DNA of 27,824 nt, the filler included, from a bacterium (GTDB lineage Bacteria; UBA9089; CG2-30-40-21; SBAY01): NCBI GenBank assembly GCA_040757115.1. It is 2 parts of 2 records of this genome, joined end to end, with 100 filler letters (N's around TTAATTAATTAA, not from the genome) between each part and the next. Parts side by side here need not be neighbours in the genome. Positions count along the whole stretch, not along the records: positions 1 to 13,886 come from JBFLYA010000098.1; 1 more part is not named here. The stretch is one strand, 5' to 3'. The notes beneath the pieces were generated by a model, which saw nothing but the letters and a program-made list of their open reading frames with translations, was not told the origin of the DNA and did no database searches. Shown here piece by piece: positions 79-25,665 of the stretch. The position numbers and the translations under genes are program-made. Position 1 is the stretch's first letter, and the number at the start of each line of letters is the position of its first letter.

Positions 79-117
79 CTTTGTGTCCTTTGCGTCTCTG
101 TGTGAGTATTTTTATTA

Positions 118-256
118 TTCTAACGATAGAGCTCACCTGCCCAGCCCTTTTAGCAGATTTACTACCTAACAACGATTTAACGACTCGTAGACATATAATC
201 TTTCTGCTTTAATGACTCAGCAAAAGGGCTGGGTCAGGTGCAGCGATTTGTTAGCA
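118..256 (-). repeat. attC site (139 bp variant)
   Basis: Plus strand TTCTAAC-GATAGAGCTCACCTGCCCAGCCCTTTTAGC...GCAAAAGGGCTGGGTCAGGTGCAGCGATTT-GTTAGCA; immediately follows the stop of ORF 260-553. Confidence 0.88.
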
Positions 257-569: not shown

Positions 570-701
570 GGCTAACGATAAAGTTCAGGTGCGGCGGGGA
601 GAATTACCACAAAAGTTTGATAGCAAGATAAAACTTTGAGAGACCACAAAACTCTGACCACGGCACAGTCCCCCGCCGTCAACTGCAACGCAGGGTTAGA
701 C
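570..701 (-). repeat. attC site (132 bp family), followed on + by conserved ~90-bp tail 702-790
   Basis: GGCTAAC...GTTAGAC with GCGGCGGGGA/TCCCCCGCCG arms; near-identical to 7 other copies. Confidence 0.92.
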
Positions 702-812
702 AAAAGCTTTGATTCGCTGTCTTTTCCTTTTCCTCTGCCTCACCGAATTATTGTGCATTCCACATTCAGGTCTGACCCCCAAAAATTTCTACTACGATAA
801 CAACATATTTCT

Positions 813-1061
813 TTAGTTCAACCCAAGATGTTGTCTGACTTGAGCAAGTGTAGAGGTCATCATTTCTTGGGAGCGTTTATCTAAAAATGCCATTAACTCT
901 GCATTCTCCCTGATAAGTTGTATCTCTCGATCCATGTCATCCACTTCGGCTATTAAAAATTCTCGCCCCTCTGATGTTCGGACAATAAGGTTTTCATGAC
1001 TGGCAATGGTGAGAACATCAGGAAAACTTAATTTCTCTCTTGATAATTCAATGGTTTTCAT
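813..1061 (-). CDS. putative antitoxin (Phd/YefM-like), partner of RelE toxin
   Basis: 82 aa, 4-bp overlap with toxin stop, acidic C-terminus ending TLAQVRQHLGL. Confidence 0.7.
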   Translation of the reverse strand: MKTIELSREKLSFPDVLTIASHENLIVRTSEGREFLIAEVDDMDREIQLIRENAELMAFLDKRSQEMMTSTLAQVRQHLGLN

Positions 1062-1351
1062 AAATGAAACTCCTTTCCTCGAAAGAATAGTTGATTATGA
1101 ACTTTATAACCAACCGCTTTAATCTTCACAGTGAACGTATCTTCATCAACATCATAGAAAACTCGATATTCCCCAATCCGAAGTTCCCATCGTGAAAGAT
1201 CATTGGGAACTAAGGCCTTGCGATTTTTGGTTTCTGTCGTTGGTTCCCATATTAACTGGTTTTCAATCGTATCAAGAATAGTCTTTTGCTCATGTTTTCT
1301 AAAATACCGCAAATCTTCTTCTGCTCTTACAGTAATTTTGATCTCAAACAT
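1058..1351 (-). CDS. type II toxin, RelE/ParE family
   Basis: 97 aa with WELRIGEYRVFYDVDE...VKIKAVGYK RelE signature. Confidence 0.9.
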   Translation of the reverse strand: MFEIKITVRAEEDLRYFRKHEQKTILDTIENQLIWEPTTETKNRKALVPNDLSRWELRIGEYRVFYDVDEDTFTVKIKAVGYKVHNQLFFRGKEFHL

Positions 1352-1470
1352 TTGTCAATCCTGTATGCTATGGTTAATTTTTTCGTAGATTACCAAGAGG
1401 TTCTCATATTGTATTCTCAATTTTATCCAAGAAGATAAACATGTTTATGCTTCTGTGGATACGGTCACAC

Positions 1471-1602
1471 ACCTAACGATAAAGTTCAGGTGCGGCGGGG
1501 AGGATTGCCACAAAAGTTTGATAACAAGACAAAACTTTGATAAACCACAAAACTCTGACCACGGCACAGTCCCCCGCCGTCAACTGCAACGCAGGGTTAG
1601 AC
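1471..1602 (-). repeat. attC site (132 bp family) with tail 1603-1692
   Basis: ACCTAAC...GTTAGAC, family copy. Confidence 0.92.
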
Positions 1603-1703
1603 AAAAGCTTTGATTCGCTGTCTTTTCCTTTTTCTCTGCCTCACCGAATTATTGTGCATTCCACATTCACGGTTTGACCCTAAAATATCTCCTTTTTATT
1701 TTC

Positions 1704-1777
1704 TCACACAAAGCCACAAAGAACACAAAGGTTTATTGTTTTATTCAATTCCTTTGTGACTTTGTGTCTCTGTGTGA
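1704..1777. repeat. inverted nonamer-array hairpin (empty GxxExxY-type element) in an ORF-less cassette
   Basis: TCACACAAAGCCACAAAGAACACAAAGG...CCTTTGTGACTTTGTGTCTCTGTGTGA; second copy at 13790-13863; right arm matches 79-106 upstream of the GxxExxY gene. Confidence 0.8.
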
Positions 1778-1789
1778 TTATTTTTATTA

Positions 1790-1808
1790 GTCTAACCTTA
1801 GATTATAC
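1790..1808 (-). other. attI-like simple recombination site
   Basis: Minus strand GTATAAT-CTAAG-GTTAGAC (degenerate inverted L box, 5-bp spacer, GTTRRRY R box), located where the attC of the creD-like gene should be. Confidence 0.5.
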
Positions 1809-1817
1809 TGCCCATTA

Positions 1818-3047
1818 TTATTTGTTACTGATAAGTTGTTTTTCCCAGTCAATTCGACCAGTAAATTGCATTACTACAAACAATGTTAAGATACAACAGA
1901 TAGTTATTGCTAATCCTGTAAATCCTTCAAGAAAGAAAGCATACGAAAAAAGCACCAAATATACGAATTGTGAAAGACCTGTCTCTAAAAGAGCAAAGCG
2001 CACTCCTACTACAAGCCGCATGTAGGAGATTACCAAGAATATTGAAACTGCTGAGCAAATTACAAAAGCCAAGTGAATATCAATGTGATCTACTAAATAT
2101 GCCAAAAGCAGGTGGAAACTAAAAAATGCCGCTGAAATGAAGAAATAATTCATTGGATGGATATTGATTTTCTTCACTACTGTAATTATGAAGATCAAAA
2201 ATAAGAAGAGGAAAAGAGAAACTGGTGCAAAGAAACTGACTCTACTGACAAAGGGACCCGGATTCAACCTCTGGGGCATATCCATACCGATTTGAATACC
2301 CGAGATTAAATTAGAATATCGCCAGGTAAGTTCCCAACCTTTGTCTTTTCTCTCCTTTTTTGTTGGAGAAATGCTATTCTCTGGAAAATCAATCTTATCA
2401 AAGTTTGTTATCATTGTCAGCTTGAAATTTTGAATCTGGGAAACATCAGCTCCAAAAAGATACCACCACTCATCCATTCCCTGCGATTCATAAGTAATTT
2501 CGATCTTTTTTGCTTCGCCTGAACCAAAGTTTAATTTCTTCAATATTTTTCCTGAAGTTGGTTGAAGCTCTTTAATCTTTTTTCCATCAACAATAAAGCA
2601 AAAATTGTCATAGATACCTTCTTTAGTAGGAAAGGTATAGTCAAAGAAAATATCACGATTCTCTTTAGCAGTATTTATAATCTGATACTTCCCAGAGTAT
2701 CCAATTTGATATGTCGAATACCAAAGCAATCCCTTTCTTCGGTGATCGAGTTTAAAATTTACTGTAATATCGCTACTCTCAAGGGTAATGGGATGATCTG
2801 TTGTTTCTACCTTTGTCTCTATAATTGTTTCAGTTCCCCGAGTCGTTTTAACCTTCTTCTCACTTCTTGTTTGGTAGTATACATAGGGTGCCTGCTGCGT
2901 TTGAATAGTTCCCCATAATTGTCCAACTGCTCCTTTTAGCTTTACATCCTGTCTGTGAGTCCGCAAGTTGGTAACATTACCTAAAATAATCCAGGCTATG
3001 CTTGTGCAGATAAAGATAAAGATAATCGCTTTAATATGTTTCCACAT
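1818..3047 (-). CDS. creD: inner membrane CreD-family protein
   Basis: 409 aa; N-terminal TM, WG..Q motif, periplasmic domain, then about 6 TMs with IHPMNY...FHLLLAYL...LSQFVYLVLF pattern typical of CreD; RBS AAGGAGG. Confidence 0.75.
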   Translation of the reverse strand: MWKHIKAIIFIFICTSIAWIILGNVTNLRTHRQDVKLKGAVGQLWGTIQTQQAPYVYYQTRSEKKVKTTRGTETIIETKVETTDHPITLESSDITVNFKLDHRRKGLLWYSTYQIGYSGKYQIINTAKENRDIFFDYTFPTKEGIYDNFCFIVDGKKIKELQPTSGKILKKLNFGSGEAKKIEITYESQGMDEWWYLFGADVSQIQNFKLTMITNFDKIDFPENSISPTKKERKDKGWELTWRYSNLISGIQIGMDMPQRLNPGPFVSRVSFFAPVSLFLFLFLIFIITVVKKINIHPMNYFFISAAFFSFHLLLAYLVDHIDIHLAFVICSAVSIFLVISYMRLVVGVRFALLETGLSQFVYLVLFSYAFFLEGFTGLAITICCILTLFVVMQFTGRIDWEKQLISNK

Positions 3048-3096
3048 CTTGTATCCCTCCTTATATTCTCCGATTATTCAGATACTTTCTTTAGTA

Positions 3097-3228
3097 GCCT
3101 AACGATAAAGTTCAGGTGCGGCGGGAAGAATTACCACAAAAGTTTGATAGCAAGATAAAACTTTGAGAGACCACAAAACTCTGACCACGGCACAGTCCCC
3201 CGCCGTCAACTGCAACGCAGGGTTAGAC
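3097..3228 (-). repeat. attC site (132 bp family) with tail 3229-3317
   Basis: GCCTAAC...GTTAGAC, family copy. Confidence 0.92.
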
Positions 3229-3368
3229 AAAAACTCTGATTCGCTGTCTTTTCCTTTTCCTCTGCCTCACCGAATTATTGTGCATTCCACATTCACGGTT
3301 TGACCCTAATATCTCCCTATCTTTATTTATCCAAGAGGCTTCTTCATATCGCTACGTTTCTATGTGTC

Positions 3369-3388
3369 GTCTAACATATAGATTATAC
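3369..3388 (-). other. second attI-like simple site
   Basis: Minus strand GTATAAT-CTATAT-GTTAGAC, same boxes as 1790-1808 with a 6-bp spacer. Confidence 0.5.
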
Positions 3389-3435
3389 AGTTTTTCTCTA
3401 CTTTATCTCATCTGAATCAAAAAGTCAAGTAAATG

Positions 3436-3464
3436 TTGACAAAAAATAATAAATTTTGTATAAT
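3436..3464 (+). promoter_or_regulatory. sigma70 consensus promoter facing against the array
   Basis: TTGACA-17 bp-TATAAT, perfect consensus; a weaker divergent TTGACT-17-TAAAGT lies on the minus strand at 3428-3400. Confidence 0.75.
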
Positions 3465-3612
3465 TCTAACTGGCTAATCATACTTTTAGGATATTATCCA
3501 GAAAAGAGGATAACTCTGCATATTTAATATCATAAGGGATGTATTGTCCCAATATAGTTTAATCCCTCTTACCCTGATTCTACTTTCCTATCAGGTTAGG
3601 CTTTATCTATGT

Positions 3613-3849
3613 CTATAGTTTATCATATTCTTCTGGTTCAATGTTTGGGATGTGTGATAATGCTTCTTTAAACTTTTTCTTATTCGCCCTCCCTGCGCGT
3701 TCTTCCAGATAGTTTTGAGTAGCAAATGCAGATATTTTTTCTGCTGTTGCACTTGAGATAAACTGGTCTATTGAAATTCCTTCTTTTCTAACTATTTCCT
3801 CCACTTGCTGATACAATGAATCAGGCAGTCTTACACTAACCGCACTCAT
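3613..3849 (-). CDS. RHH/CopG-type antitoxin
   Basis: 78 aa, MSAVSVRLPDSLYQQV...EGISIDQFI RHH pattern; coupled to PIN gene. Confidence 0.85.
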   Translation of the reverse strand: MSAVSVRLPDSLYQQVEEIVRKEGISIDQFISSATAEKISAFATQNYLEERAGRANKKKFKEALSHIPNIEPEEYDKL

Positions 3850-4274
3850 TATTCTAACCCTCCTATCTTCTCTAAAAACTCTTTTGGTGTTAATACTTGA
3901 ATACCAAATTTTCCAATACCCTTAAAGTCTTTTTTATTATATGTGATAATGTATTCGCTTTGAGATTCAATGGCTAATTCTAATACCATATCATCTTTTA
4001 TATCTTTTAAGTAAGGTCTCCACAAGAAGAATATTTTACACTTGTTGGAGATATTACAAATCATATCTATAATTGCATCAATTTGCTCATTAGTTAATTT
4101 AGTTTCCCTTTTTGCTACACTTTCATATTCAAAAATCAAGGGAGTAGAGATATTTTGTTCAAACTTATCTCTGCTGATTTCAAAAAGTAGCTTATACGAC
4201 GCTCCTCGTTTGGAAAGTAAAGCCGCTACAAATACATTTGTATCTATGACTACTTTGTGCTTGTAATGTTTCAT
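3849..4274 (-). CDS. PIN-domain toxin (putative TA toxin, PIN family)
   Basis: VVIDTNVFVAAL, EYE, DxKDDMVLELA, IITYNKKDF PIN motifs. Confidence 0.92.
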   Translation of the reverse strand: MKHYKHKVVIDTNVFVAALLSKRGASYKLLFEISRDKFEQNISTPLIFEYESVAKRETKLTNEQIDAIIDMICNISNKCKIFFLWRPYLKDIKDDMVLELAIESQSEYIITYNKKDFKGIGKFGIQVLTPKEFLEKIGGLE

Positions 4275-4280
4275 AATGAT

Positions 4281-4309
4281 ATTATAAATGATATTATTCC
4301 ACTTGTTAA
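4281..4309 (-). promoter_or_regulatory. cassette-internal promoter for PIN TA (probably leaderless mRNA)
   Basis: TTAACA-17-TATAAT, with the -10 ending 6 nt before ATG 4274 and no SD. Confidence 0.55.
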
Positions 4310-4344
4310 TCTACTTATCTGAGTTTATAAAGTTTTATTTTAGC

Positions 4345-4476
4345 CCCTAACGATAGAGCTCACCTGCTGCGGGGCGGATTACCACCAAACTTTGTAAACA
4401 AGATAAAAGCTTGAGATACCACAAAACTCTAATTACGGCACAGCCCCCCGCAGTCAGGTGCAGTGAATGGTTAGGT
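4345..4476 (-). repeat. attC site (132 bp, no tail)
   Basis: CCCTAAC...CACCTGCTGCGGGG...CCCCGCAGTCAGGTG...GTTAGGT; R'' overlaps the TAA of ORF 4471-4716. Confidence 0.92.
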
Positions 4477-4716
4477 TTTCTTACTTTCTAAGTATAAAGT
4501 ATCAGGACATAAATCTTGCCCATTCTTCCATTGAATACTGCCCAAAAATGGTTTAACAGAGTTAAATAAGTTAGCATTCGTTAATTCTTTAAATATCCCT
4601 TTGTCTAAATATGGCTTCACATCAAATACCTTAACTTCATCATTGGTAAAAGTTAAGGTTAATGTATAGTTAGAATTCGGTTTAACATCTTTAATTCTTG
4701 GATTCATGCTAATCAC
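4471..4716 (-). CDS. DUF2442 domain protein (putative antitoxin)
   Basis: VKP..NYTLTLTFTN...FDVKPYL...GSIQWKNGQDLCPDTLY. Confidence 0.85.
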   Translation of the reverse strand: MISMNPRIKDVKPNSNYTLTLTFTNDEVKVFDVKPYLDKGIFKELTNANLFNSVKPFLGSIQWKNGQDLCPDTLYLESKKT

Positions 4717-4718
4717 CC

Positions 4719-4988
4719 CTATTTTAGTGGATCTATCTTGAAGACATTCTCGCCACTACTGGCAAGTTCCCAATCAGCCATCAATTCTTCTTTATGTATT
4801 TCAAGCCATGCCTGAACCAGTTTCATCTTGCTTGATTTAATCTTGCCTTCTAACACTTTACCATCTGGAATTGAAAGAATAGTTTCTTGAGCCTGATACT
4901 TGACATGAACATGAGGCATCTGATGTTTTCTTTTGTCGAAATAATACATCGAGATAATGATACCATAAAACATTGCAATTACTGCCAT
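4719..4988 (-). CDS. DUF4160 domain protein (putative toxin)
   Basis: IAMFYGIIISMY...PHVHVKY...LVQAWLEIHKEELMADW...FKIDPLK; RBS AGGAGG. Confidence 0.88.
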   Translation of the reverse strand: MAVIAMFYGIIISMYYFDKRKHQMPHVHVKYQAQETILSIPDGKVLEGKIKSSKMKLVQAWLEIHKEELMADWELASSGENVFKIDPLK

Positions 4989-5020
4989 CTTTTACCTCCT
5001 TTTGCTTAATTTCTCTCTGA

Positions 5021-5152
5021 ACCTAACGATAAAGTTCAGCGGCGGCGGGGAGGATTGCCACAAAAGTTTGATAGCAAGATAAAACCTTGAGAGACCACAA
5101 AACTTTGACCACGGCACAGCCCCCCGCCGTCAACTGCAACGCAGGGTTAGAC
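5021..5152 (-). repeat. attC site (132 bp family) with tail 5153-5243
   Basis: ACCTAAC...GTTAGAC, family copy. Confidence 0.92.
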
Positions 5153-5302
5153 AAAAGCTTTGATTCGCTGCCTTTTCCTTTTCCTCTGCCTCACCGAATT
5201 ATTGTGCATTCCACATTCACGGTTTGACCGTAATATCTCCCCCAATTCAAGATGCGACCCTCTATTGCCCTCCTACTCTATTGCCCTATTGCCCCGACCT
5301 TA

Positions 5303-6182
5303 CTATTGCCCCCTTGAAGTCAGTTGTTGCAACACTGAAAATGCTCGTTGTGCATCATTGTCATTTGGGTTTTTCTCAAGAATATCTTTTGCGAGAAGCA
5401 ACCCATCTTCAATTTTCCCTTGACCTGCGAGTGCCAATGCAAGGAACAATGATACATTTTTGTCATTTCCATATTTAGATAAATACTCTTGACACAGAGA
5501 TTCGCATTTTGAATACTTCTTTTTGTTAATACTTTCTGCGATTAGAGAGGGTATGACTTTTTTCGCATATTCTGTCTCTTTTGCCTCTAGCTCTTCCAGA
5601 TCCGCATCGGTTATTCCAAATGGTGCGAGCTTTTCCTCATCCAGATTCTCGCGAGCTATCATTGCGCCAAGTGTAAATAGATTGACATATTTGAGAAAAT
5701 TGCCCAAGCTGTCCGGCTGTATGACGCCTATAATTGTCAAGGAAGAGCTCAATAGAAAAACTAAAACCACCAAACAGGGGTATTCCTTCAATAACTGCTA
5801 AACAGAGCAATTTAAAGCAGCAGTCGGGGAGCCTTCTCTTGTTAACAAAATCCCAAATTATGGGGAGAAAAATCCATATTAGAAAATAAGGTGTTACCGA
5901 GAAAAAGAGCTTGCCTGCTGTTGCCCAAGAACTTAACAATCCAATTCCATCTTCTAAAGGCAAGAACGGAACTAACCTCGCAGTATGAAAAGAAAGGAAT
6001 GAGTCAGCTCTTTTGAAAAACTGCCAGCCGAAAAACCCGAAAATTTGAACCAAAGTGGTTAACCCCAATGCAAACACAAAAAGTTTTGCAACTATTCCCA
6101 CAGTAAGTAAGATCGGCTCAAAAAATTTCCACCTACTAAATGCAGACATGAAAAGGAAGATCGGTCGAAAAAATTTCTTCAT
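5303..6182 (-). pseudogene. probable single frameshifted gene: membrane protein with C-terminal TPR-like repeat (ORFs 5637-6182 and 5303-5791)
   Basis: Two ORFs overlap by 155 bp inside one cassette; removing one T from the T run near 5756-5760 fuses them into ...IPLFGGFSF-LLSSSLTIIG...; C-terminus LALALAGQGKIEDG..AKDILEKNPNDNDA is TPR-like. Confidence 0.55.
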
Positions 6183-6205
6183 AATCTTCTCCTATTTGCC
6201 TTGGC

Positions 6206-6337
6206 GCCTAACGATAAAGTTCAGGTGCAGCGGGGAGAATTACCACAAAAGTTTGATAGCAAGATAAAACTTTGACAGGCCACAAAACTCTGACCACGGC
6301 ACAGTCCCCCGGCGTCAACTGCAACGCAAGGTTAGAC
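6206..6337 (-). repeat. attC site (132 bp family) with tail 6338-6427
   Basis: GCCTAAC...GTTAGAC, family copy. Confidence 0.92.
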
Positions 6338-6415
6338 AAAAGCTCTGATTCGCTGTCTTTTCCTTTTCCTCTGCCTCACCGAATTATTGTGCATTCCACA
6401 TTCACGGTTTGCCCC

Positions 6416-6808
6416 TCATATCTCCCCTCTTTTGTTATTATTTAGCTGGAGTTCTAAGTTCAAATTCCCCTCCAAATCCAGAAGCATCTTTTCAAATACT
6501 GGTCTAATTGGTGGCAACTCCTCTTTGACTGCTCTCCAAACTAAATCTGTTTTAACCCCAAAATATTCATGGATGAGTTTATCTCTCATACCTGCGATAT
6601 CCCGCCAGGGAATCTCTGGATATTTCTTTTTTGTTTCATTCGGTATGTTTTTGACTGCTTCGCCAATAATTTCTAAAGCCCTTATAACAGCAAAATTTGT
6701 TTTATCATCGCATAGGAATTCCTCATAAGGCATATTCCAGGTGAAACTTTCTGCTTTATTTATTGCTTCAATTATATCTTGAATATAATCACCAATTTCC
6801 CTTTTCAT
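6416..6808 (-). CDS. HepT-like HEPN ribonuclease toxin (DUF86)
   Basis: AVIRALEIIGEA...IPWRDIAGMRDKLIHEYFGV (Rx4H motif); stop codon lies inside the conserved attC tail. Confidence 0.92.
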   Translation of the reverse strand: MKREIGDYIQDIIEAINKAESFTWNMPYEEFLCDDKTNFAVIRALEIIGEAVKNIPNETKKKYPEIPWRDIAGMRDKLIHEYFGVKTDLVWRAVKEELPPIRPVFEKMLLDLEGNLNLELQLNNNKRGEI

Positions 6809-7104
6809 AGATACACTACTTCCTCTAATATATGCTTTCCTATCTTTGGCTTAAGGGAAGACCTCATTACTAAATCAACCTTTATTCTTAAAAGGTCACT
6901 TAAATAGTTTTCTAAATTTATAAATCTTAAAAGTCCAATCTTTGCATCATCATCAAAATCAACAAGAATATCCAAATCGCTTTTTTTTTGGTTTTCCCCT
7001 CTAACATAAGAGCCAAACATTCCTATTTGATTAACATTGTATCTTTTTTTTAATTCCCATTTATTATCTCTTAATATCTGCTCAATCTCTTCTATTTTTT
7101 TCAT
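6805..7104 (-). CDS. MntA-like minimal nucleotidyltransferase antitoxin
   Basis: FGSYVRGE..KSDLDILVDF...KVDLV; start moved from 7194 to ATG 7104, which has SD GAGGAGG. Confidence 0.92.
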   Translation of the reverse strand: MKKIEEIEQILRDNKWELKKRYNVNQIGMFGSYVRGENQKKSDLDILVDFDDDAKIGLLRFINLENYLSDLLRIKVDLVMRSSLKPKIGKHILEEVVYL

Positions 7105-7222
7105 CTGCTCCCTCCTCAAATTTTCGACGGTATTGTCAAAAGTTTCGGGTTGACTTTTCCTAAAAGATATGAGGGCATATCTTTTCATAAACATCTTTAT
7201 GCTTCTGTAGATGCGGTTACAC

Positions 7223-7414
7223 GCCTAACGATTGAGCTCACCTGCTGCGGGGAGGACTACCACTAACCTTTGTAAACAAGATAAAAGCTTGAGATACCAC
7301 AAAACTCTAATTCCGGCACAGCCCCCCGCAGTCCACTTCCGGGTAGAATCAGCGGTTACCCAACCAATCCCAGAGCTTCGGATTTAACTTGACACGAGCA
7401 ACGATTGGTTAGGA
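7223..7414 (-). repeat. attC site interrupted by a 60-bp insertion (7338-7397)
   Basis: 192 bp = 132-bp family length + 60; removing 7338-7397 restores GTCCACTGCAACG, matching GTCAACTGCAACG/GTCCGCTGCAACG of sister sites. Confidence 0.88.
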
Positions 7415-7699
7415 TTAATATACTTCATCGTGTGTTCCAATCTCAAGCAAAAGAATATCGTCTTCATCTTGCTCTTTACTCTTTACAAAATCAAATACTA
7501 TTCGCAGGTCGTATCCAACGCTACATGCCCAGGAGCCCAATAGTTTACCTTTAAGTTTATGAGTCTCCAATTGCGGAGTAAAAGGATCTTTGGTCAAAAG
7601 TTCCACGGCTTCTTTAATATCTTGCTTAAGAATTGGATGCTTTTTGATAGTTCGTTTGAATGCCCTTATAAAGGTTTTGCCCCAAATGAGTGTTCTCAT
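7415..7699 (-). CDS. type II toxin, RelE/StbE-YafQ-like mRNA interferase
   Basis: THKLKGKL.GSWACSVGYDLRIVF...LLEIGTHDEVY. Confidence 0.92.
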   Translation of the reverse strand: MRTLIWGKTFIRAFKRTIKKHPILKQDIKEAVELLTKDPFTPQLETHKLKGKLLGSWACSVGYDLRIVFDFVKSKEQDEDDILLLEIGTHDEVY

Positions 7700-7917
7700 T
7701 CGAAAAGCTCCTTCATCAGGTCATCTACACTACCACTTTTTACTTCTCCTCTAGCATATTCTTCTCTTGCTTCCCTGATGTTCTTTGCAAGTAACTCTCG
7801 TCTCTGGTCTATTAACCTATGCCGAATAATATCAATGAGGTTTTCCTGCTGATATTCAGGTAACGATTCTACAACATCTAAAGCCTCTTGTAAAATTGTA
7901 GCACTTTGACTGGACAT
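7696..7917 (-). CDS. antitoxin partner of YafQ-like toxin
   Basis: 73 aa, EAREEYARGEVKSGSVDDLMKEL, 4-bp overlap with toxin; RBS AGGGGG. Confidence 0.8.
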   Translation of the reverse strand: MSSQSATILQEALDVVESLPEYQQENLIDIIRHRLIDQRRELLAKNIREAREEYARGEVKSGSVDDLMKELFE

Positions 7918-7944
7918 TTAAAATACCCCCTTTCTTCTTGAAAA

Positions 7945-8065
7945 GCCTAACAATAAATAGGGGAAATGTCCCCCTATTTCCGTAAGCATGATTACCCATT
8001 GAGATACTGCAAAACTTTCAATCACGGCACAGTCCCCCGCCGTCCGCTGCAACGATTTGTTAGCT
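7945..8065 (-). repeat. chimeric/degenerate attC
   Basis: Normal R''/L'' arm (CACGGCACAGTCCCCCGCCGTCCGCTGCAACGATTTGTTAGC), but the other arm is replaced by GCCTAAC followed by the hairpin AAATAGGGG-AAATGTC-CCCCTATTT. Confidence 0.7.
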
Positions 8066-8079
8066 TTTATGCAACTATT

Positions 8080-8712
8080 TCATGGACAGAGTTCTATTGT
8101 GGATTTTGCATTTATAAGAACCATATCTCCTTTTCCTTTCAAGACACCATTTTCATTAATATATTCAACTTTTCCGACAAAAGCTTTGGTTGGATATAAC
8201 TTAGCTTTAAGGGTCTCCTTTGAAGTTGAAATTATTCTATACTGGGCTTCTGGATCAAAGGTATTCTTTCTTACAGGTAGAATTAACTTAATCCCTCCAT
8301 CTTTAAGTTCTAACACATCGCCATCTAAAGTACTCCGCAAAACTTCAATGGGAGGTTCAAGGGTTACTCTTCCCTCTTGATCTATTATATTTCTTATCTT
8401 GTTAACATAAATTTGAGCATTTAGGCTGTCTTTTTCCTTTTTAAAAAAAGCAACCTCGCCTATCCAATTTTCCCCTGCCCATTGCCATTCGTATCTCTCT
8501 CCAACTTTAGGCACGGGTAAATAGGAAAAGTATTTGGAGGAAAAGATTGACAAGACAATGATTGAGGCTACTAATAACAAAAAGAAAATAGAAGCATATG
8601 CAATCTTTGTCCACTTTCCTTGCTTTATGTTTCCTATTATTTGCCATAACAAACTCCCCATTGCTGGAAAAACACCAATTATGGCGGCAATGATTATTGG
8701 GTCCATTTTCAT
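8080..8712 (-). CDS. hypothetical protein, two N-terminal TM helices plus soluble domain
   Basis: 210-aa ORF, RBS AGGGGG, ends 14 bp before the attC. Confidence 0.75.
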   Translation of the reverse strand: MKMDPIIIAAIIGVFPAMGSLLWQIIGNIKQGKWTKIAYASIFFLLLVASIIVLSIFSSKYFSYLPVPKVGERYEWQWAGENWIGEVAFFKKEKDSLNAQIYVNKIRNIIDQEGRVTLEPPIEVLRSTLDGDVLELKDGGIKLILPVRKNTFDPEAQYRIISTSKETLKAKLYPTKAFVGKVEYINENGVLKGKGDMVLINAKSTIELCP

Positions 8713-8728
8713 TTCTACCCCCTTTAAT

Positions 8729-9640
8729 TTATTTAAAGTAATAAGTAAAATTTAGAATTGCTTCAGAGCTTTCAGCAGTATTTTTTCCATAAAAAGTATA
8801 ACCATATCCTAATTCGAAAGAGAATCCCTGATTTGCTCTGGTTGCTCCAAATGAACCTATATTAATAAGGAAAATCTATTTAGAATATTCTTCGTATTTC
8901 TTTTTAATAACTTCTTTTTCGGTAGGGTCTTTTGTTGAACTTGAAGTAACTTTGACCCCATCTAATATAGCTCTTAAAAAAACTTTGTTTGGTACTTTTA
9001 ACGGTAATTCTAAATTCATCTCAGCAAAATAAGGTATTTTATCTACAAATTCCCTCGCTCTTATTCTGTAGCCAATTTCTGCACCAATACTATGGAGCAA
9101 TTTATCAGTATTATCGGGACTATCGGGTGATTTGTTAAATTTTTTCCCTATTAACAAACGAGTTTCAGTTTCTCTTTCTCCATCACCAAGAGATGGTGAC
9201 TTGTTCTCATCGTAACCACTTGGAAATTTTTCTCTAAGTAATATACTTATTGTAGGATAGTATTTATCTTGATAATCATCTTCATTTAAAACTCTATATT
9301 TCAATCCTACAAAAATATCCTCAATATGTTTATTTTTAAAGGTATCAAACTCATTTTCAAATTTTGCCCATTTGTAGGGAATAGAAAATGATAAATTTAT
9401 ATTATCTAATACCCCATATTCCATTTTAAATTCTGTTCTCTGTTCATCGTACTTACCACCAAAAGGAATTTCTTCTTTCTTGCCGTTATTATCAAAGTTT
9501 TTATCTGACCAATAATATTTATAATACATTTCAGTGAAAATATCACTTTTTCCGATAGTCCACGCACCAGCGAATATATTCTTTGGTAAATATATAATTG
9601 AAAATAGAATTAATAGCTGAGTAATTGTCTTTATATGCAT
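8729..9640 (-). pseudogene. exported outer-membrane beta-barrel-like protein with one in-frame TAG (8876-8878)
   Basis: Signal peptide (..IFA-GAWT); beyond the TAG the same frame continues IFLINIGSFGATRANQGFSFELGYGYTFYGKNTAESSEAILNFTYYFK to TAA 8729, ending in a barrel-type aromatic C-terminus. Confidence 0.7.
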
Positions 9641-9667
9641 AGCTCTATCCCCACCAATATTTATTAA

Positions 9668-9799
9668 AGCTAACGACAAAGTTCAGGTGCGGCGGGAAGA
9701 ATTACCACAAAAGTTTGATAGCAAGATAAAACTTTGAGAGACCACAAAACTCTGACCACGGCACAGTCCCCCGCCGTCAACTGCAACGCAGGGTTAGAC
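9668..9799 (-). repeat. attC site (132 bp family) with tail 9800-9890
   Basis: AGCTAAC...GTTAGAC, family copy. Confidence 0.92.
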
Positions 9800-9915
9800 A
9801 AAAGCTCTGATTCGCTGTCTTTTCCTTTTCCTCTGCCTCACCAAATTATTGTGCATTCCACATTCACGGTTTGACCCTACTATCTCCCCCTAACCTATCT
9901 TATTTCCATAAATTC

Positions 9916-10239
9916 TTACGGTCTAACTCTAACTCTTTCCTCACTCCTTCTCTGAATTAAGTCATGTTCCAGCATCCTGGTAGCGTTGCGTATCTTTTCT
10001 CTCAACCAGGTATTGATTAACGACTCAGATGAAACTTTCTTTATTTTTGCTATTTCAGTAAGATTAGCCACAATATCTTCTTCAAGAGCAACCAAATACT
10101 TTCTCCTTTTGATATTTACATCAAAATGGGCTTCTGGCATTTGTTCCCAATAATTCCCCATGTCATGAATATCAAAGAAGTCAATAAGTTCATCTATAGA
10201 TCTTGAAGGTGGTAGAGTTTTTAATTTATTTTTTACCAT
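9916..10239 (-). CDS. CopG-family antitoxin (BrnT partner)
   Basis: SIDELIDFFDIHDMGNYW...LTEIAKIKKVSSESLINTWLREKI. Confidence 0.85.
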   Translation of the reverse strand: MVKNKLKTLPPSRSIDELIDFFDIHDMGNYWEQMPEAHFDVNIKRRKYLVALEEDIVANLTEIAKIKKVSSESLINTWLREKIRNATRMLEHDLIQRRSEERVRVRP

Positions 10240-10510
10240 ATTGTTTCCTCTCTTTCTTTTTCATATTTCTGGCACTCAAGATGAGTGTTTCTCTCGTCTT
10301 TTTGTAGATAAAGAGTACGGATAGGTATCTTCCACTATTAGTTTGTCCCAAAGCCAGATAAACATCTTCGCCTTTTCGCTCACCTTTTTCAACAAAACGG
10401 AATTTTGGTTTATTATTTAACACCTCTTCAACTTCATTGGGAGTAACATTGGGTTTAACTGCCAGTTTATCAACAATGTTTCTGAGCCAAATAATATCTT
10501 CTATCTTCAT
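10226..10510 (-). CDS. BrnT-family toxin
   Basis: VTPNEVEEV...YLALGQTNSGRYLSVLF...ILSARNM...ERKQY; likely start MKIEDIIW at 10510 (the ORF track starts at 10534). Confidence 0.88.
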   Translation of the reverse strand: MKIEDIIWLRNIVDKLAVKPNVTPNEVEEVLNNKPKFRFVEKGERKGEDVYLALGQTNSGRYLSVLFIYKKTRETLILSARNMKKKERKQYGKK

Positions 10511-10564
10511 CCGTTTTTTATATCCTCTTTTCATTCAGCATGTTATATCTATTATTCACAGGTA

Positions 10565-10696
10565 GGCTAACGATAAAGTTCAGGTGCGGTGGGGAGAATT
10601 ACCACAAAAGTTTGATAGCAAGATAAAACTTTGAGAGACCACAAAACTCTGACCACGGCACAGTCCCCCGCCGTCAACTGCAACGCAGGGTTAGAC
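10565..10696 (-). repeat. attC site (132 bp family) with tail 10697-10785
   Basis: GGCTAAC...GTTAGAC, family copy. Confidence 0.92.
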
Positions 10697-10785
10697 AAAA
10701 GCTCTGATTCGCTGTCTTTTCCTTTTCCTCTGCCTCACCGAATTATTGTGCATTCCACATTCACAGTTGCTCCTAATATCTCCCC

Positions 10786-10907
10786 TGAGTTCATCGGCGG
10801 CGGGGAGAATTACCACCAAACTTTGTAAGCGAGACAAAACTTTAATAAAACACAAACATTTAAAAAGCAGTTAACCCCCCGCCGTCCGCTGCAACGATTA
10901 GTTAGGA
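10786..10907 (-). repeat. truncated attC lacking its R' (GTT) box
   Basis: TGAGTTCATCGGCGGCGGGGAG...CCCCGCCGTCCGCTGCAACGATTAGTTAGGA; the initial CTAACGA of the family is replaced by the tail of the neighbouring attC. Confidence 0.8.
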
Positions 10908-10958
10908 AAAAATTCACACATACTTAATTCTGCTTTCGAGGTCTGAACCAGATATTGG

Positions 10959-11017
10959 TCCCAACGCCAAAACTCAGCGGTGGGCTACTACCCGTCCGCT
11001 GGAATGTTTTGTTAGAA
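10959..11017 (-). repeat. short attC (59 bp)
   Basis: TCCCAAC-GCCAAAACTCAGCGG-TGGG-CTACTA-CCCG-TCCGCTGGAATGTTTT-GTTAGAA. Confidence 0.8.
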
Positions 11018-11231
11018 GCTGTGTCGCTTTCGTTAAATCAAGTAAAGACCTCAATGCCTTATTTACGGCATCTGAATCTGCAAATGATTTAGCAATATCC
11101 GGCTCAAGCATTACGATATTAGCTCCTTCTGATAGAAGACGTTTGTAATACTTGCCACGAATAGCTTTTGAATAATCAAAATCATATTCGGGGCGTAACT
11201 CATCACTACTTTTTTTTTCTTTAATTTTCAT
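10974..11231 (-). CDS. BrnA-like antitoxin
   Basis: DELRPEYDFDYSKAIRGKYY...LEPDIAKSF.DSDAVNKALRSL; likely start 11231; reads into the attC. Confidence 0.8.
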   Translation of the reverse strand: MKIKEKKSSDELRPEYDFDYSKAIRGKYYKRLLSEGANIVMLEPDIAKSFADSDAVNKALRSLLDLTKATQLLTKHSSGRVVAHR

Positions 11232-11490
11232 GTCTTTTCCTTTCATGTGCGGTTGCAGTCCGCGCATTTATTATCCATATTATTTTTCCCCTCTCGGTAT
11301 GTGATACTACAAGTAGACGACTACCAGAAGAGTAACCAACAGTTATTAATCTTTCCTCGTCATTCGAATGATCTGGATCATCAAAAGTTGCTGATAAAGG
11401 ATTATAAAATACCGTCATAGCTTCTTCAAATGGCACCTTGTGTTTTTTGATGTTCTTTTTTGCTTTTTCCTTGTCCCATTCAAATTGCAT
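11221..11490 (-). CDS. BrnT-family toxin
   Basis: MQFEWDKEKAKKNIKKHKVPFEEA...DPDHS.DEER...LLVVSHTER...INAR.AT..ER. Confidence 0.93.
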   Translation of the reverse strand: MQFEWDKEKAKKNIKKHKVPFEEAMTVFYNPLSATFDDPDHSNDEERLITVGYSSGSRLLVVSHTERGKIIWIINARTATAHERKRHEN

Positions 11491-11572
11491 GTAATTAATT
11501 TATCCTATTTTTTACGCCATTTTTCCAAAACTCTTTTTTCGTATAAAACATTCCCTACTTATATCACTTTAT

Positions 11573-11601
11573 ATTATACAGCATAAAAATTTATATGTCA
11601 A
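11573..11601 (-). promoter_or_regulatory. cassette-internal sigma70 promoter of BrnTA pair
   Basis: TTGACA-17-TATAAT perfect consensus on the minus strand. Confidence 0.75.
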
Positions 11602-11628
11602 TCAAAAAATCCTCTGCACTATTCATAC

Positions 11629-11691
11629 CACTAACGGCAAAACTTACCGGCATGCGGTGTTTTGTGCGTCCAGTGGAACGCAGTGTTAGGG
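11629..11691 (-). repeat. short attC (63 bp)
   Basis: Minus strand CCCTAAC-ACTGCG-TTCCACTGGAC...CCGGTAAG-TTTTGCC-GTTAGTG. Confidence 0.75.
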
Positions 11692-11719
11692 CATATTACA
11701 GTCAGTAAACCCCTTGGAA

Positions 11720-13516
11720 TCATAGCAATTCAAACCATGTTTTGATTTTCTGTGCCATTAACTTACGTCGCTCTTCAAGGAAATCATCGTAGGGTGGAAT
11801 TGTGCCGTCCAATAAAGACTCAGGTAGGCAGCTTGCCTTCAGGTTGGCCTTCATCTCTTCAAAGTTAGTGATACCGCCATATTTTTTCTTTCCACCGCGA
11901 CACTGTTCAGCCAGTTCCTCAAAGTATGTTTCCGGTGGGTTATCGCCGATGGCGATATTGATTTCACTCTGCGCAAGTACAAAGTTAGCGATTTGATTAT
12001 AACGTCCTCGCGAAAGTCCCTGCTTTTTTAAATAGTTCCTGGGATAGATGTGGTGTACGTCGCTACGGTTGAGCAGCAGGTCGAGCACAGTAATATCACG
12101 AGACAAAAAACCTTTATCGCCGAGTTTTACCTGCGCTGCTTGAAAACATAGGAAGTAAGGACTGTTTGATGAGGATGTGTCCATAATTTGAGGAAGCATT
12201 CCTGTCCAGAAGCTGTCTGGGAGCTCATTCTCAACGACAGAAGCAGCATAAGTCGTCAGCCCGCGATTTTCAATTTGGCGTATATCAAAATCAAAGGCTG
12301 TCTCAGGACTAGCGGCATAACGTCCGCGTAGTAGTGACATGGCATACCATCGCCGCACCAAACGTTCAAGATCAGCTGCAGGGATGCCTTCCGTCCGACC
12401 ACGCAGGTAAAGTATATACGCAAAGTTGACGGCATTACGTCCTCCAATCAAATCACTGGTCACGAATCCCGCTGAACGCAAGATCATCGTGATACGATCG
12501 AAGTGGGTTTTGTTGACAAACGAGAGAATACCCTTTTTTAGTTTTCCGAATGACGCCTCAACAATTGACTCTTCAAATTGTTTAGTCTCGAAGTTACGGC
12601 CTGATAGTAGCGCTACCAAATCCTGGAGCTTTCCTCTGCCAAATTCAGACGTAAAAGCCACACGCAACATATCGGTGTAAGTTGGATCGTATATGTCGTC
12701 GTTGACATCTTTGAGCCAGCGCATTTGTGGCAGGAATTCAGAATCCGCAAACGCTTTATCGTTCTTTTCAATGTTTGACAAGAATTCTGGTGCGACAGCC
12801 AAATGGCAGAAATAGTCGATTGCCTTGCGCAAAAGGTTTCCGCCGTAAATCTCGTTGACGGCAATTTTTGACATAGCAAAGTCGGCTTGCGAAAGCTCTG
12901 CACCTGCTGAGGTTACGCGGATAAATATTTCTGTGACGGTTTCAATATCAAGATCTTCGGCAAGATCGATTACGCCGACGTGGTTGTTGATGATCTTGCG
13001 AAGCTTCTCGATGCTGGCAAAAATAGCATCCTGTGATACGCCAGGATTGGCAGCGCAGTAATTACCAACAAGTTGGAACAGGCTGGTAGAGGGTGCAAAT
13101 ACATCCGCCACATCGTGAATCCACGATGCGTCTTTGCGTATAGCCGGATTTGCGACTTCAAACCGTTCTTCTTGCGGATGAAAAGCAATACGGATTTGGA
13201 CGGTTTCGTAATCTTTAGTTAGAACATCGCGGCCTAACAATGCCGCCATGAGTGCCGTTACTCGTTGTTGACCATCAATAAGGATGCGCTTCCCAATGGA
13301 TGATGTGCCATCCTTAAGTTTTACAGTCGGATTTCGCCAGGCTATCAAATACCCAACAGGGTATCCTTGATAAAGTGAATCGAGGAGGTTGCGAACTTTT
13401 GTTGCCTCCCACACAAATGGCCGCTGGATCTCTGGGATCGCGATTTCCCCAGACTTGACCCATGTAAGCAGAGTTTCGATTGGATGGGGAGTTACCGAAT
13501 AGCGTTGTGTACTCAA
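11720..13516 (-). CDS. GmrSD-like type IV restriction endonuclease (DUF262 + DUF1524/HNH)
   Basis: [17 protein letters not shown] and EIFIRV DUF262 motifs; C-terminal DVHHIYP...NQIANF...N HNH-like motif; TTG start with AGGAGG. Confidence 0.88.
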
Positions 13517-13557
13517 TTCAATAATCCTCCTTTTTGTGGTAAGTAGATGGTTGAAGC

Positions 13558-13689
13558 CCCTAACGATAAAGTTCAGGTGCGGCGGGGAGGATTACCACAA
13601 AAGTTTGATAGCAAGATAAAACTTTGAGAGACCACAAAACTCTGACCACGGCACAGTCCCCCGCCGTCAACTGCAACGCAGGGTTAGAC
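13558..13689 (-). repeat. attC site (132 bp family) with tail 13690-13778 and hairpin 13790-13863
   Basis: CCCTAAC...GTTAGAC; 13558-13868 nearly duplicates 1471-1782. Confidence 0.92.
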
Positions 13690-13886
13690 AAAAGCTTTGA
13701 TTCGCTGTCTTTTCCTTTTCCTCTGCCTCACCGAATTATTGTGCATTCCACATTCACGGTTGACCCTAAAATATCTCCTTTTTATTTTCTCACACAAAGC
13801 CACAAAGAACACAAAGGTTTATTGTTTTATTCAATTCCTTTGTGACTTTGTGTCTCTGTGTGATTATTTATTTCTCCATTGACTAT

Positions 13887-13986
13887 NNNNNNNNNNNNNN
13901 NNNNNNNNNNNNNNNNNNNNNNNNNNNNNNTTAATTAATTAANNNNNNNNNNNNNNNNNNNNNNNNNNNNNNNNNNNNNNNNNNNN
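13887..13986. other. artificial contig linker
   Basis: 44 N + TTAATTAATTAA (stops in all six frames) + 44 N = 100 bp. Confidence 0.97.
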
Positions 13987-14194
13987 TAGAAATTGATTGT
14001 GGAAAACAACAAATTTCCATAAATTTCTATTAGTTTCTATTAATTTCAATTTTTTTAATAATATCTCCCTATCTCCTTAATCTCCACATCTCCTTTTGTT
14101 ACACCACCTGAACACTTACTAATATTTAATATTTATTTGTTGTCTCCCCCAAATCCTATTTTGCAGAACCCTATGTTCCTATTTAACAATACCC

Positions 14195-24273: not shown

Positions 24274-25665
24274 ATGTTAAAAAAGATAACTTTTATTAGT
24301 TTAATCATTGGGATAGTATCAGTCACATCCATAAGTCTGGCACAACAGCCGATAGAGCAAGGTGGAACAGAGACAACCGCAGTTTTGGGTCCAACATTAC
24401 AATTTGCTACTAAAACGGGTGGAGGGATTCAATCTGCCATTGTCTTAGGGGATATAGATGGTGATGGAAAATTAGAAGTGGTTACTGCGGCTTTTGATCA
24501 AAATGTCTATGTCTTAAATGAAGATGGAAGTTTATTGCCTGGCTGGCCTGTAAAACTCCCTCAAGCCTGGCTTTTACGGTCATCTCCGGCTATTGGAGAT
24601 ATTAATAACGATGGGAATTTAGAGATAGTCATTGGAACATTAGAGGCAGAGGTCTATGCCCTGGATAAAACTGGTAAATCCATTCCTGGTTGGCCAGTAA
24701 AGGTTATGGGAGGAATCTTCTCCTCGCCTGCATTAGCTGATATTGACCAGGACAAAAAATTAGAAGTGATAATAGGCTCAATAGGTGAAGGAGAGGCGAT
24801 TTTTGTCTATGCCTTTAATGAAGATGGAACTATAGTTCCAGGTTGGCCGGCAAAGATTAATGCTACCACCTGGTCTTGTGCCAGCATAGGGGATATAGAT
24901 AAAAATGGTAAATTAGAAATAGCCGTAACGACTTGTAGTGGAAATACTTACCTCTGGGATAGAAAAGGGAAATTACTTTCTGATTGGCCTGTCCTCGCCG
25001 GTTTCTGGAATATTTCTTCTTCGGTATTTGGAAATATAGATAAGGATAAAAAATTAGAGATAATTGTAAGTTCAAATGATAAAAAGGTATATGCTTTTAA
25101 GACAAACGGAAAATTAGTTTCTGGCTGGCCTGTTCAAACTGACGGGGCAATTATCTCTTCTCCTGCATTAGGAGATATTGATGAAGATGGAGAGTTGGAG
25201 ATAATAATTGGTTCTGATGATAAAAAGGTATATGCCTTTAATGGAGATGGGAGTTTAGTTCAAGGTTGGCCTGTAACTTGCGGCGGAGGTATCCAGGCAT
25301 CTCCTATCCTGGGAGATATTGATAAAGATAGGAAAATAGAGATAATCGTTGGTTGCACAGATAAAAAGGTATATGCCTTCAATGGAGATGGAACATCGGT
25401 TACAGGATTTCCATTACAGACAGAAGGTGCCATCTTCTCAACTCCAGCATTAGGGAATATCGATGATGATGATGGGCTTGAATTAATTGTGGCATCATTT
25501 GATTCAAAGGTATATTGTTGGGATTTTGGACCAGGAACATACAATATCCCTCCAGATAAAGGGAAAAACAAGAAAAAGACAAATACCTCAAAATTATTAC
25601 CCTGGCCAATGTTTCAACATGATGAATGTCATACAGGAACACATCCGGGCATATCCTCCAGATAA
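24274..25665 (+). CDS. secreted FG-GAP/VCBS repeat beta-propeller protein
   Basis: Signal peptide; about 8 repeats of SSPALGDIDxDGxLEIIxGS...VYAFNxDG...GWPV; C-terminal WPMFQHD..HTG; RBS AGGAGG. Confidence 0.9.
   Translation: MLKKITFISLIIGIVSVTSISLAQQPIEQGGTETTAVLGPTLQFATKTGGGIQSAIVLGDIDGDGKLEVVTAAFDQNVYVLNEDGSLLPGWPVKLPQAWLLRSSPAIGDINNDGNLEIVIGTLEAEVYALDKTGKSIPGWPVKVMGGIFSSPALADIDQDKKLEVIIGSIGEGEAIFVYAFNEDGTIVPGWPAKINATTWSCASIGDIDKNGKLEIAVTTCSGNTYLWDRKGKLLSDWPVLAGFWNISSSVFGNIDKDKKLEIIVSSNDKKVYAFKTNGKLVSGWPVQTDGAIISSPALGDIDEDGELEIIIGSDDKKVYAFNGDGSLVQGWPVTCGGGIQASPILGDIDKDRKIEIIVGCTDKKVYAFNGDGTSVTGFPLQTEGAIFSTPALGNIDDDDGLELIVASFDSKVYCWDFGPGTYNIPPDKGKNKKKTNTSKLLPWPMFQHDECHTGTHPGISSR

Follow-up and report, generated by a model that had tools for sequence, protein, structure and literature searches.

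Two questions of integron biology are open: how a gene acquires the attC recombination site that makes it an integron cassette, and what makes the attC sites within one chromosomal integron resemble each other so closely. A repeated module bears on both. It lies in the window analysed here, a 27,824-nt stretch of the draft genome of a bacterium of the UBA9089 lineage (GCA_040757115.1, here G000; 4.3 Mb in 462 contigs, 36.8% G+C). Two contigs make up the window, C461 followed by C462, and between them lie N runs and a short linker (13887-13985). The cassette array and its variable ends are confined to C461 (1-13886); to the right of 13886 lies no part of the array. The C461 locus is contained in sequencing runs labelled as groundwater metagenomes. 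It carries eight copies of a 235-nt repeat (556-790, 1457-1691, 3083-3317, 5007-5241, 6192-6426, 9654-9888, 10551-10785 and 13544-13778), and shorter matches raise the family to 11-12 sites on the contig. The module within this repeat is composed of a 128-nt attC together with a non-coding tail of 90 nt, which is placed between the cargo and the attC. The reading we favour, with a probability of about 0.55, is that the variable outer end of the tail is a seam, where a shared tail-attC module was joined to cargo by events that were not site-specific, the interior of the module having been homogenised.

The original prediction held that the last bases of the tail are hypervariable against a near-invariant remainder, and a genome-wide alignment bears this out. 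We aligned 47 complete copies, with the copy at 3099-3316 as reference for counting; 13 of them are each followed by the same repeat, and hence are copies of one cassette, and were set aside, leaving 34 with unrelated neighbours. Copies are near-identical up to a CACGG motif, then diverge for about 20 nt, after which all likeness ends. The number of events per site per copy is 0.030 for the 128 nt of attC and 0.020 for tail positions 1-72, and rises to 0.154 for the final 18 nt, a rate about 7.5-fold that of tail 1-72, to which no probability is attached because the copies are related. The 50 events in tail 1-72 include 14 from a single C/T polymorphism at position 10. Of the 94 events in this final stretch, 35 are substitutions and 59 are indels (44 insertions and 15 deletions), and the 34 copies hold 20 distinct strings there versus 8 in the preceding 18 nt. 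All eight ends in the window differ from one another. Seven of the eight end strings quoted earlier occur verbatim; the first (762-790) reads A-GGTCTGACC-CCC and not the GGGTC..GACCC form attributed to it. The reported length variation of the terminal C run is likewise visible, as a variable C/G run at the tail edge.

Miscalls at the edges of a collapsed repeat could in principle generate differences of this kind, the more so in a draft of 462 contigs with repeats at many contig ends. Against this, contigs of run X1 with a depth of 285-341 span the passage from each unique cargo to the tail end and show no deviating letter (these are contigs and not reads, in which rare variants are invisible), and the independent sister genome G001 displays the same pattern of end variation in the 19 copies fetched from it, including one identical variant. 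Low-quality consensus calls are thus no explanation for the variants, an assembly artefact is scarcely conceivable, and the seam is not noise.

That the array is an integron array follows from several features taken together. Inverted core sites, CTAAC...GTTAG, bound an imperfect palindrome in all eight module copies and in the sites that lack a tail; they conform to RYYYAAC ... GTTRRRY, and the same sites recur in the array beside an integrase gene on contig C322. On the + strand the attC is predicted to fold into the expected hairpin with its inner palindrome, single-base bulges lying on the 3' arm; the bulged bases, read by eye, are T and C, 6 bp apart. Canonical extrahelical attC bases are G and T. 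In this fold model the 128-nt part has the anatomy of an integron attC on the recombined (bottom) strand. Twelve sites lie in 13.9 kb, all in a single orientation, and every cargo open reading frame (ORF) with a Pfam annotation is on the minus strand; the domains are those of toxin-antitoxin and defence systems (among them ParE, PIN, HepT with nucleotidyltransferase, BrnT, YafQ, DUF4160/DUF2442, GmrSD). The integron integrase (TIGR02249, 368.6 bits, cut-off 265) is encoded at C322:13643-14572 on the minus strand, divergent from an array to its right whose cassettes end, in gene sense, in the same module; an integrase thus stands beside an array on C322 and not on C461 itself. The hairpin sites, the minus-strand cargo and the C322 integrase with the same module identify C461 as a cassette array in which the cassettes run from right to left. 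Further integrase fragments are found on 7 other contigs, and TIGR02249 scores above its cut-off in 8 of the 26 genomes searched. A BLAST query with the module returned 143 matches in the genome, 55 to the whole module and 57 to its first part only, and attC-like matches number about 130.

Tail and attC are tightly linked. All 50 tail cores away from contig ends come after an attC arm, and 59 of 61 full-length attC-arm matches are followed by the tail, as opposed to 0 of 24 arm matches that stop before the core site. In four cases in the window the cargo stop codon falls from 0 to about 60 nt before the tail. The tail is part of the cassette to its right (window coordinates), the order in gene sense being cargo, tail, attC.

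Read in gene sense, most tails start with a run of 2-6 G followed by GAGATAT, a start that is missing in about 8 of the 31 junctions read. What stands before this start is heterogeneous: a cargo stop codon, a full attC, a half attC, a collapsed attC, a palindrome arm (5242-5300) or an attI-like region. A full attC precedes the tail at 10788-10915 and once in G001, there 3 nt away; a half attC, consisting of the first arm broken at or before the loop, does so in four cases (C322:18360-18440, twice on C22, and on C456); a collapsed attC, reduced to its two core sites, does so on C50. This series, from full through half and collapsed to no attC before the tail, suggests that many cargo-tail fusions arose from cassettes that lost their own attC. 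In junctions on C456 and C22 the attC arm and the tail share one continuous G-run, as a deletion between short repeats would leave it; such deletions would account for the C-run of varying length on the + strand. The seam is also marked by tandem duplications, of 22 nt on C127 and 17 nt on C22, of 12 nt on both C322 and C46/C456, and of 25 nt in G001, where the two copies have 3 differences.

These junctions also bear on whether the integrase itself could have made the joins, using the TTAGGG of the tail, a near match to GTTRRRY, as a secondary site. A G directly precedes TTAGGG in about 3 of 31 junctions, one of which has a canonical spacer before it (C22:9891), about 2 of 31 have GTTAGG directly before the G-run, and the tail cassette in G001 that lies 3 nt after a full attC would fit such an event. 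Most junctions, however, have no match to a core site, the mid-gene joint described below has none either, and homology to the palindrome of which the tail bears one arm continues past TTAGGG, so that the edge lies elsewhere. Integrase-made joins are accordingly very improbable, and the seam is not integrase-made.

One joint, on C127, cuts a chromosomal gene. Positions 2147-2908 of this contig match C21:11535-12295 at 98.2% identity, and at 99.6% over the last 488 nt; on C21 this stretch covers the promoter and roughly the first 200 codons of a gene for a 385-aa fibronectin type III (fn3) protein, which has a MoxR ATPase gene as its neighbour. The C127 sequence departs from the gene partway, near codon 200, and continues into a duplicated tail end, with no GTTRRRY site at the joint. 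The assembly contains the remaining half of the fn3 gene only once, and G001 holds only an intact fn3 gene, which is 99% identical to the C127 piece. A search for paralogous cargo with and without a tail returned, apart from repeats, the pairs C127/C21 and C77/C322 and the set C223/C352/C408. In the C77/C322 pair the same cargo is followed by a tail and a long attC (C77:6050-6230) or by a short attC with no tail (C322:10429-10615), and C322:18300 and C222:600-800 show the same kind of difference; modules have thus been exchanged downstream of the same cargo.

Under the seam reading, a cassette would have been fused by deletion to the tail-attC unit that follows it, losing its own attC. The joins would form by slippage or template switching at short G-run microhomologies near hairpin-forming DNA and would leave behind a half or collapsed attC, a variable G/C run, indels of 1-3 nt and tandem duplications of 12-25 nt. 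The interior of the module would be kept alike by exchange between copies or by recent spread, and homogenisation would stop short of the last bases before homology ends, sharpening the contrast between the two parts. Slippage or template switching in the vicinity of hairpin-forming DNA is what the microhomology, the duplications and the joint within the fn3 gene point to; this mechanism is inferred, as is gene conversion as the homogenising force. The earlier proposal was that the join is made by an error-prone or template-switching step on single-stranded nucleic acid and not by conservative recombination. It was right in identifying a joining end, and most joints do lack a core-site crossover; template switching on single-stranded nucleic acid at the join is plausible. 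An error-prone process that is still going on finds no such support, as set out below.

The outer end of the tail has relatives outside the arrays. A query with its last 37 nt retrieves, besides tails, many non-array places where the sequence occurs twice, inverted, about 10 nt apart: the outer 35-45 nt of the tail correspond to a single arm of a palindrome, about 70 nt long, that is scattered through the genome. The genome holds 21 full free palindromes of several subfamilies, 18 of them between ORFs (by a mechanical scan of ORFs >=80 aa), and palindrome matches occur in 16 of the 26 related genomes searched. Of the 13 stem pairs, 6 carry compensatory changes and 11 are without any broken cell; a dispersed, intergenic palindrome with compensatory stem changes is what characterises repetitive extragenic palindromic (REP) elements and their inverted pairs, REPINs. 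Within the arm a core, GGTCWGACC, is followed by a CCCYAA motif and a pyrimidine run, and these elements together constitute the last 25 nt of the tail. The core is well kept in the free palindromes and degenerate in the tails (GGTTTGACC, GGTTGACC, GGTTTGCC), and tail types of other genera bear arms of other palindrome subfamilies. The hypervariable mini-hairpin described originally is accordingly the palindromic core of this REP-like arm and not a structure of its own. Folded as single-stranded DNA, seven of the eight ends reach 0 to -0.6 kcal/mol, no better than shuffled sequences, and only 5213-5241 is stable (-3.8 kcal/mol). Nor is the "perfect" form of the hairpin an independent acquisition, for GGTCTGACC is simply the consensus of the wider repeat family.

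For a single tail-bearing cassette an orthologue was found in G001, the pair being window 9670-10746 and G001:C760:7632-8713 (95% identity). Between their modules there are 4 differences, all in the interior, and the last 18 nt are identical. At 3 of the 4 differing sites the minority allele is shared with 3 other copies of its own genome and is absent from the scored copies of the other genome. This matches what exchange between copies within a genome predicts if the seam is left out. On this one pair the seam is unchanged since G000 and G001 split, and the identity of the end variant alongside four interior differences argues against a continuing error-prone process.

The same observations lend weight to an account by passive decay only, in which the outer arm is an unconstrained, dead half-palindrome, the attC and inner tail are constrained or homogenised, and the order of cargo and tail is old in all cassettes, so that the ends would require no particular joining mechanism. 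The core kept in free palindromes and degenerate in tails, the stable end variant of the orthologous pair and the genome-specific interior alleles shared among copies are all in keeping with it. Passive decay leaves unexplained the half and collapsed attC sites, the tandem duplications and the recent mid-gene joint, and the same cargo is found with different downstream modules, which were therefore exchanged. We consider it unlikely as the whole explanation, though it deserves to be taken seriously.

The dispersed arm raises the further question of whether an enzyme acts on it. In a one-ended transposition, a nuclease or transposase (of the Y1 type, such as a REP-associated tyrosine transposase (RAYT), or another) would cut the outer end of the arm and join the tail-attC to new DNA. 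The tail edge is the natural end of a free palindrome arm, G-run included; the palindromes are dispersed, so something spreads them; end duplications similar to those of the tails occur at free palindromes (C168, C213, C439); and the genome contains 7 matches to Y1 transposases. Yet none of the Y1 genes examined is directly bordered by the palindrome. On C430, the RAYT-like gene lies between different hairpins of its own, of GTAG type, with a palindrome copy about 400 nt downstream, beyond them, and nothing palindrome-like is found within 420 nt on either side of the Y1 genes on C200, C333 and C119. No target duplication was seen by eye, and where the free palindrome was compared with G001 in search of an empty site, another high-copy repeat abuts it. 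The comparison with Y1/RAYT ends proposed earlier therefore yields no link, neither palindrome nor module flanking a Y1 gene, and we reject it. An end of the IS200/IS605 type is not seen either, the hairpin being unstable in seven of eight copies and no Y1 gene standing next to any module; the 409-aa ORF at 1818-3047 is CreD-like and not a TnpB. Two of the Y1 genes have settings of their own: that on C430 (13100-14020) sits among 36-nt repeats spaced like a CRISPR array, and that at C119:1846-2208 (151.8 bits) lies in a cassette array, on a contig with attC-like matches.

The only enzyme seen to use the arm is of the IS110 family. Its gene (ORF 440-1597 of the segment C311:6400-8700; PF01548, 85.2 bits; PF02371, 36.9 bits) interrupts the palindromic core of a tail arm at C311:6700, and the end of the same element abuts a free palindrome arm at C24:3634-3779 and a tail arm in G010, another relative (near position 3230 of segment L013). 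Members of IS110/IS1111 are known to target REP sequences and attC sites (PMC11187229), and the insertion seen here resembles that case. Insertion into the core is a different act from cutting the outer end, and it leaves the joining of the outer edge to cargo unexplained. One-ended transposition is in sum improbable.

Cassettes might also be generated by reverse transcription. The group IIC-attC intron model of cassette formation, which addresses the same question of how a gene acquires an attC, invokes hairpin targets and reverse transcription. In the present case, an RNA from the start of the tail would be copied, untemplated C's would be added, and a template switch would fuse cargo to the tail-attC. 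The C/G run at the edge does vary, the joints are imprecise, and in an abundant ORF-less cassette an extended -10-like motif, read by eye, lies just upstream of the tail start. RVT_1 matches are few, however: 4 at 3 loci, comprising an RT-TPR-primase fusion of conflict-system type (RT, reverse transcriptase), a 498-aa RT gene and a broken gene. No intron maturase domain is present in the two proteins scanned (the fusion and the 498-aa RT, which has no further domain), so that neither a group II intron nor its maturase is seen among these matches, unlike in the group IIC-attC model. Moreover, the G-run is explicable by microhomology with the attC arm in at least 2 junctions, and no RNA run contains the locus. 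No RT of a type matching a retroelement-made junction (group II intron, DGR) was found near the repeats, the group II intron link is rejected, and genesis of these cassettes by reverse transcription is highly improbable. The 498-aa RT gene (C148:2478-2885) lies about 0.5 kb from an attC-like match.

A bolder version of the joining argument can be put forward as speculation. The tail-attC unit might be a ready-made "cassette maker", in which the REP-like arm is a handle for attachment behind arbitrary genes or gene fragments; attachment could proceed through joining at microhomologies or by template switching, or else the arm could recombine with one of the many REP-like palindromes found behind ordinary genes. 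Were this so, the mid-gene fusion on C127 would be a fresh case of de novo cassette formation, the unexplained step in the biology of integrons. We hold this idea to be doubtful.

Several points weigh against the seam reading itself. The junction classes come from reading 31 of the 35 junctions with unrelated neighbours by eye, in gene sense, with no scoring model. Greater variability of the end would equally be expected if a dead REP arm were simply under relaxed constraint. The sharp edge shared by the tails is not predicted by purely random deletion end points and might instead be a defined DNA end cut by an enzyme. The C127 contig could come from a second strain, being 99% identical to the G001 gene versus 98.2% to C21, and its fusion may represent an insertion into the gene rather than a duplication, or a chimeric contig. 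Both the stability of the seam and the gene-conversion signature rest on one orthologous pair and four sites. Finally, no candidate function of the tail is supported by the RNA-fold, Rfam or promoter tests.

Those tests can be briefly described. The inner 55 nt of the tail are purine-rich in gene sense; on the recombined strand they are nearly pure pyrimidine and, in the predicted fold, remain unpaired while the attC hairpin forms. A structured RNA was rejected as the identity of the tail, as the module has no Rfam match at E up to 1 and RNAalifold, applied to 27 tails from several genera, finds no common structure on the one strand or the other. A role as promoter or terminator was rejected as well: the only promoter-like match at a tail end (1674-1702, 9 of 12) is at a copy followed by the hairpin repeat H, the region holds 11 promoter-like matches versus 7.9 expected from shuffles, and no terminator-like sites were found in it. 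A 9-codon frame with start and stop exists in several genera, but its changes hit all codon positions and one tail type loses the stop, and it was discarded as a small peptide. Decoy pairing between the tail and the attC arm on the gene-sense strand is present in the minimum-energy fold, with a z of only -0.62, and was likewise set aside.

Whatever its function, the tail is an old companion of attC sites. Among 41 related genomes the whole module is limited to G001 and one occurrence in G018, another relative. Matches to the tail only, at 72-80% identity, are found in 9 further genomes of other genera and orders, where they sit directly after GTTAG next to attC sites of about 60 nt that are unrelated in sequence; it is this recurrence beside unrelated sites that indicates the age of the association. 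An exact 19-nt tail pattern had 2 matches in the genome collection, and the one inspected has no attC beside it.

The arrangement can be compared with known systems. Sedentary chromosomal integrons, such as that of Vibrio cholerae with its VCR/VXR sites (PMC13638679, PMC5371416), have species-specific attC sites, large arrays of near-identical attC and many toxin-antitoxin cargos, and the present arrays are similar, also in having the integrase at one array and a long attC (128 nt). They differ in that the conserved block here extends 90 nt beyond the attC into the cassette and ends in a REP-like arm; the extension also occurs beside unrelated attC sequences in other genera. No published description of a conserved extension of attC sites was found among titles and abstract openings, which is weak evidence of absence. 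With REP/REPIN elements and their RAYT (TnpA-REP) (PMC8266576, PMC3733652), the palindrome shares its short size, intergenic position, tens of copies and compensatory stem changes, and the presence of both single arms and inverted pairs. It differs in that no RAYT gene is flanked by it, that no GTAG is seen by eye at its foot, and that one arm is fused to an integron site.

As to the two questions raised at the outset, this lineage provides a marker: the shared block is longer than the attC, its REP-like origin is recognisable, and the scars at the seam are readable. If the seam records the joining of cargo to site, the process becomes testable through sister genomes and integrase assays. Otherwise, the arrays of these groundwater bacteria still show that cassettes decay and fuse by hairpin-associated deletion and that sites evolve in concert up to a sharp limit.

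Table. Features of the cassette array on C461 (window coordinates)
Feature	Position	Strand	Remarks
attC type 1	572..699	-	inverted cores, inner palindrome; family predicted to fold attC-like on + strand
tail	700..790	-	end variable from about 765 to 790; stop of cargo ORF 813-1061 lies 23 nt beyond
attC type 1	1473..1600	-	repeat alignment
tail	1601..1691	-	hairpin repeat H next
hairpin repeat H	1692..1796	-	ORF-less cassette content; second copy 13779 to contig end 13886
attC type 1, reference copy	3099..3226	-	alignment, fold
tail, reference copy	3227..3317	-	positions 1-55 pyrimidine-rich on + strand; rest is REP-like arm
attI-like region with promoter-like sites	3370..3564	-	homology to C322 integrase-proximal region
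attC of other type, without tail	4347..4474	-	repeat comparison
attC type 1	5023..5150	-	repeat alignment
tail	5151..5241	-	sole end variant with stable small hairpin
attC type 1	6208..6335	-	repeat alignment
tail	6336..6426	-	HepT-like ORF 6416-6808 stops within last bases of tail
attC of other type, without tail	7225..7352	-	repeat comparison
partial attC, without tail	7985..8063	-	repeat comparison
attC type 1	9670..9797	-	repeat alignment
tail	9798..9888	-	end variant identical in G001 orthologous cassette
attC type 1	10567..10694	-	repeat alignment
tail	10695..10785	-	directly abuts next attC: cassette is tail + attC only
attC of other type, without own tail	10788..10915	-	repeat comparison
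attC type 1	13560..13687	-	repeat alignment
tail	13688..13778	-	then repeat H and contig end

The attI-like region, situated mid-array, shares 73% identity with the sequence close to the integrase on C322, and the likeness stops at GTTAGAC, which assigns the adjacent tail of the reference copy to an ORF-less cassette (57 nt + tail + attC). A promoter-like match of 12 of 12 is found in it at 3436-3464 on the + strand, similar copies are present on 6 other contigs, and no integrase gene adjoins it in the window. Repeat H is a 105-nt long hairpin with about 30 copies in the genome, many at contig ends, and is followed on the + strand by a T-rich run; together with tail and attC it makes an ORF-less cassette of about 330 nt. 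Collapsed attC sites, with two core sites and few bases between them, still bound cassettes (window 110-150, C50:7720-7760, C407:1745-1775). The CreD-like cassette at 1817-3103 is 98% identical to its counterpart in G001 and 95% identical to a stretch of G018, a member of another family of the phylum, which suggests cassette transfer or, possibly, a binning error.

Other repeats were encountered in passing. Three are dispersed and of high copy number, with representatives at 14001-14100 (the start of C462), C441:30572-30695 and C127:1850-2170: one occurs at about 75 places, mostly contig ends, another, about 124 nt long, has >35 copies in G001, and another, about 300 nt long, has >25 copies. 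At 24429-25418, tandem repeats of 141-147 nt lie within a 463-aa ORF (24274-25665) and look like protein-domain repeats.

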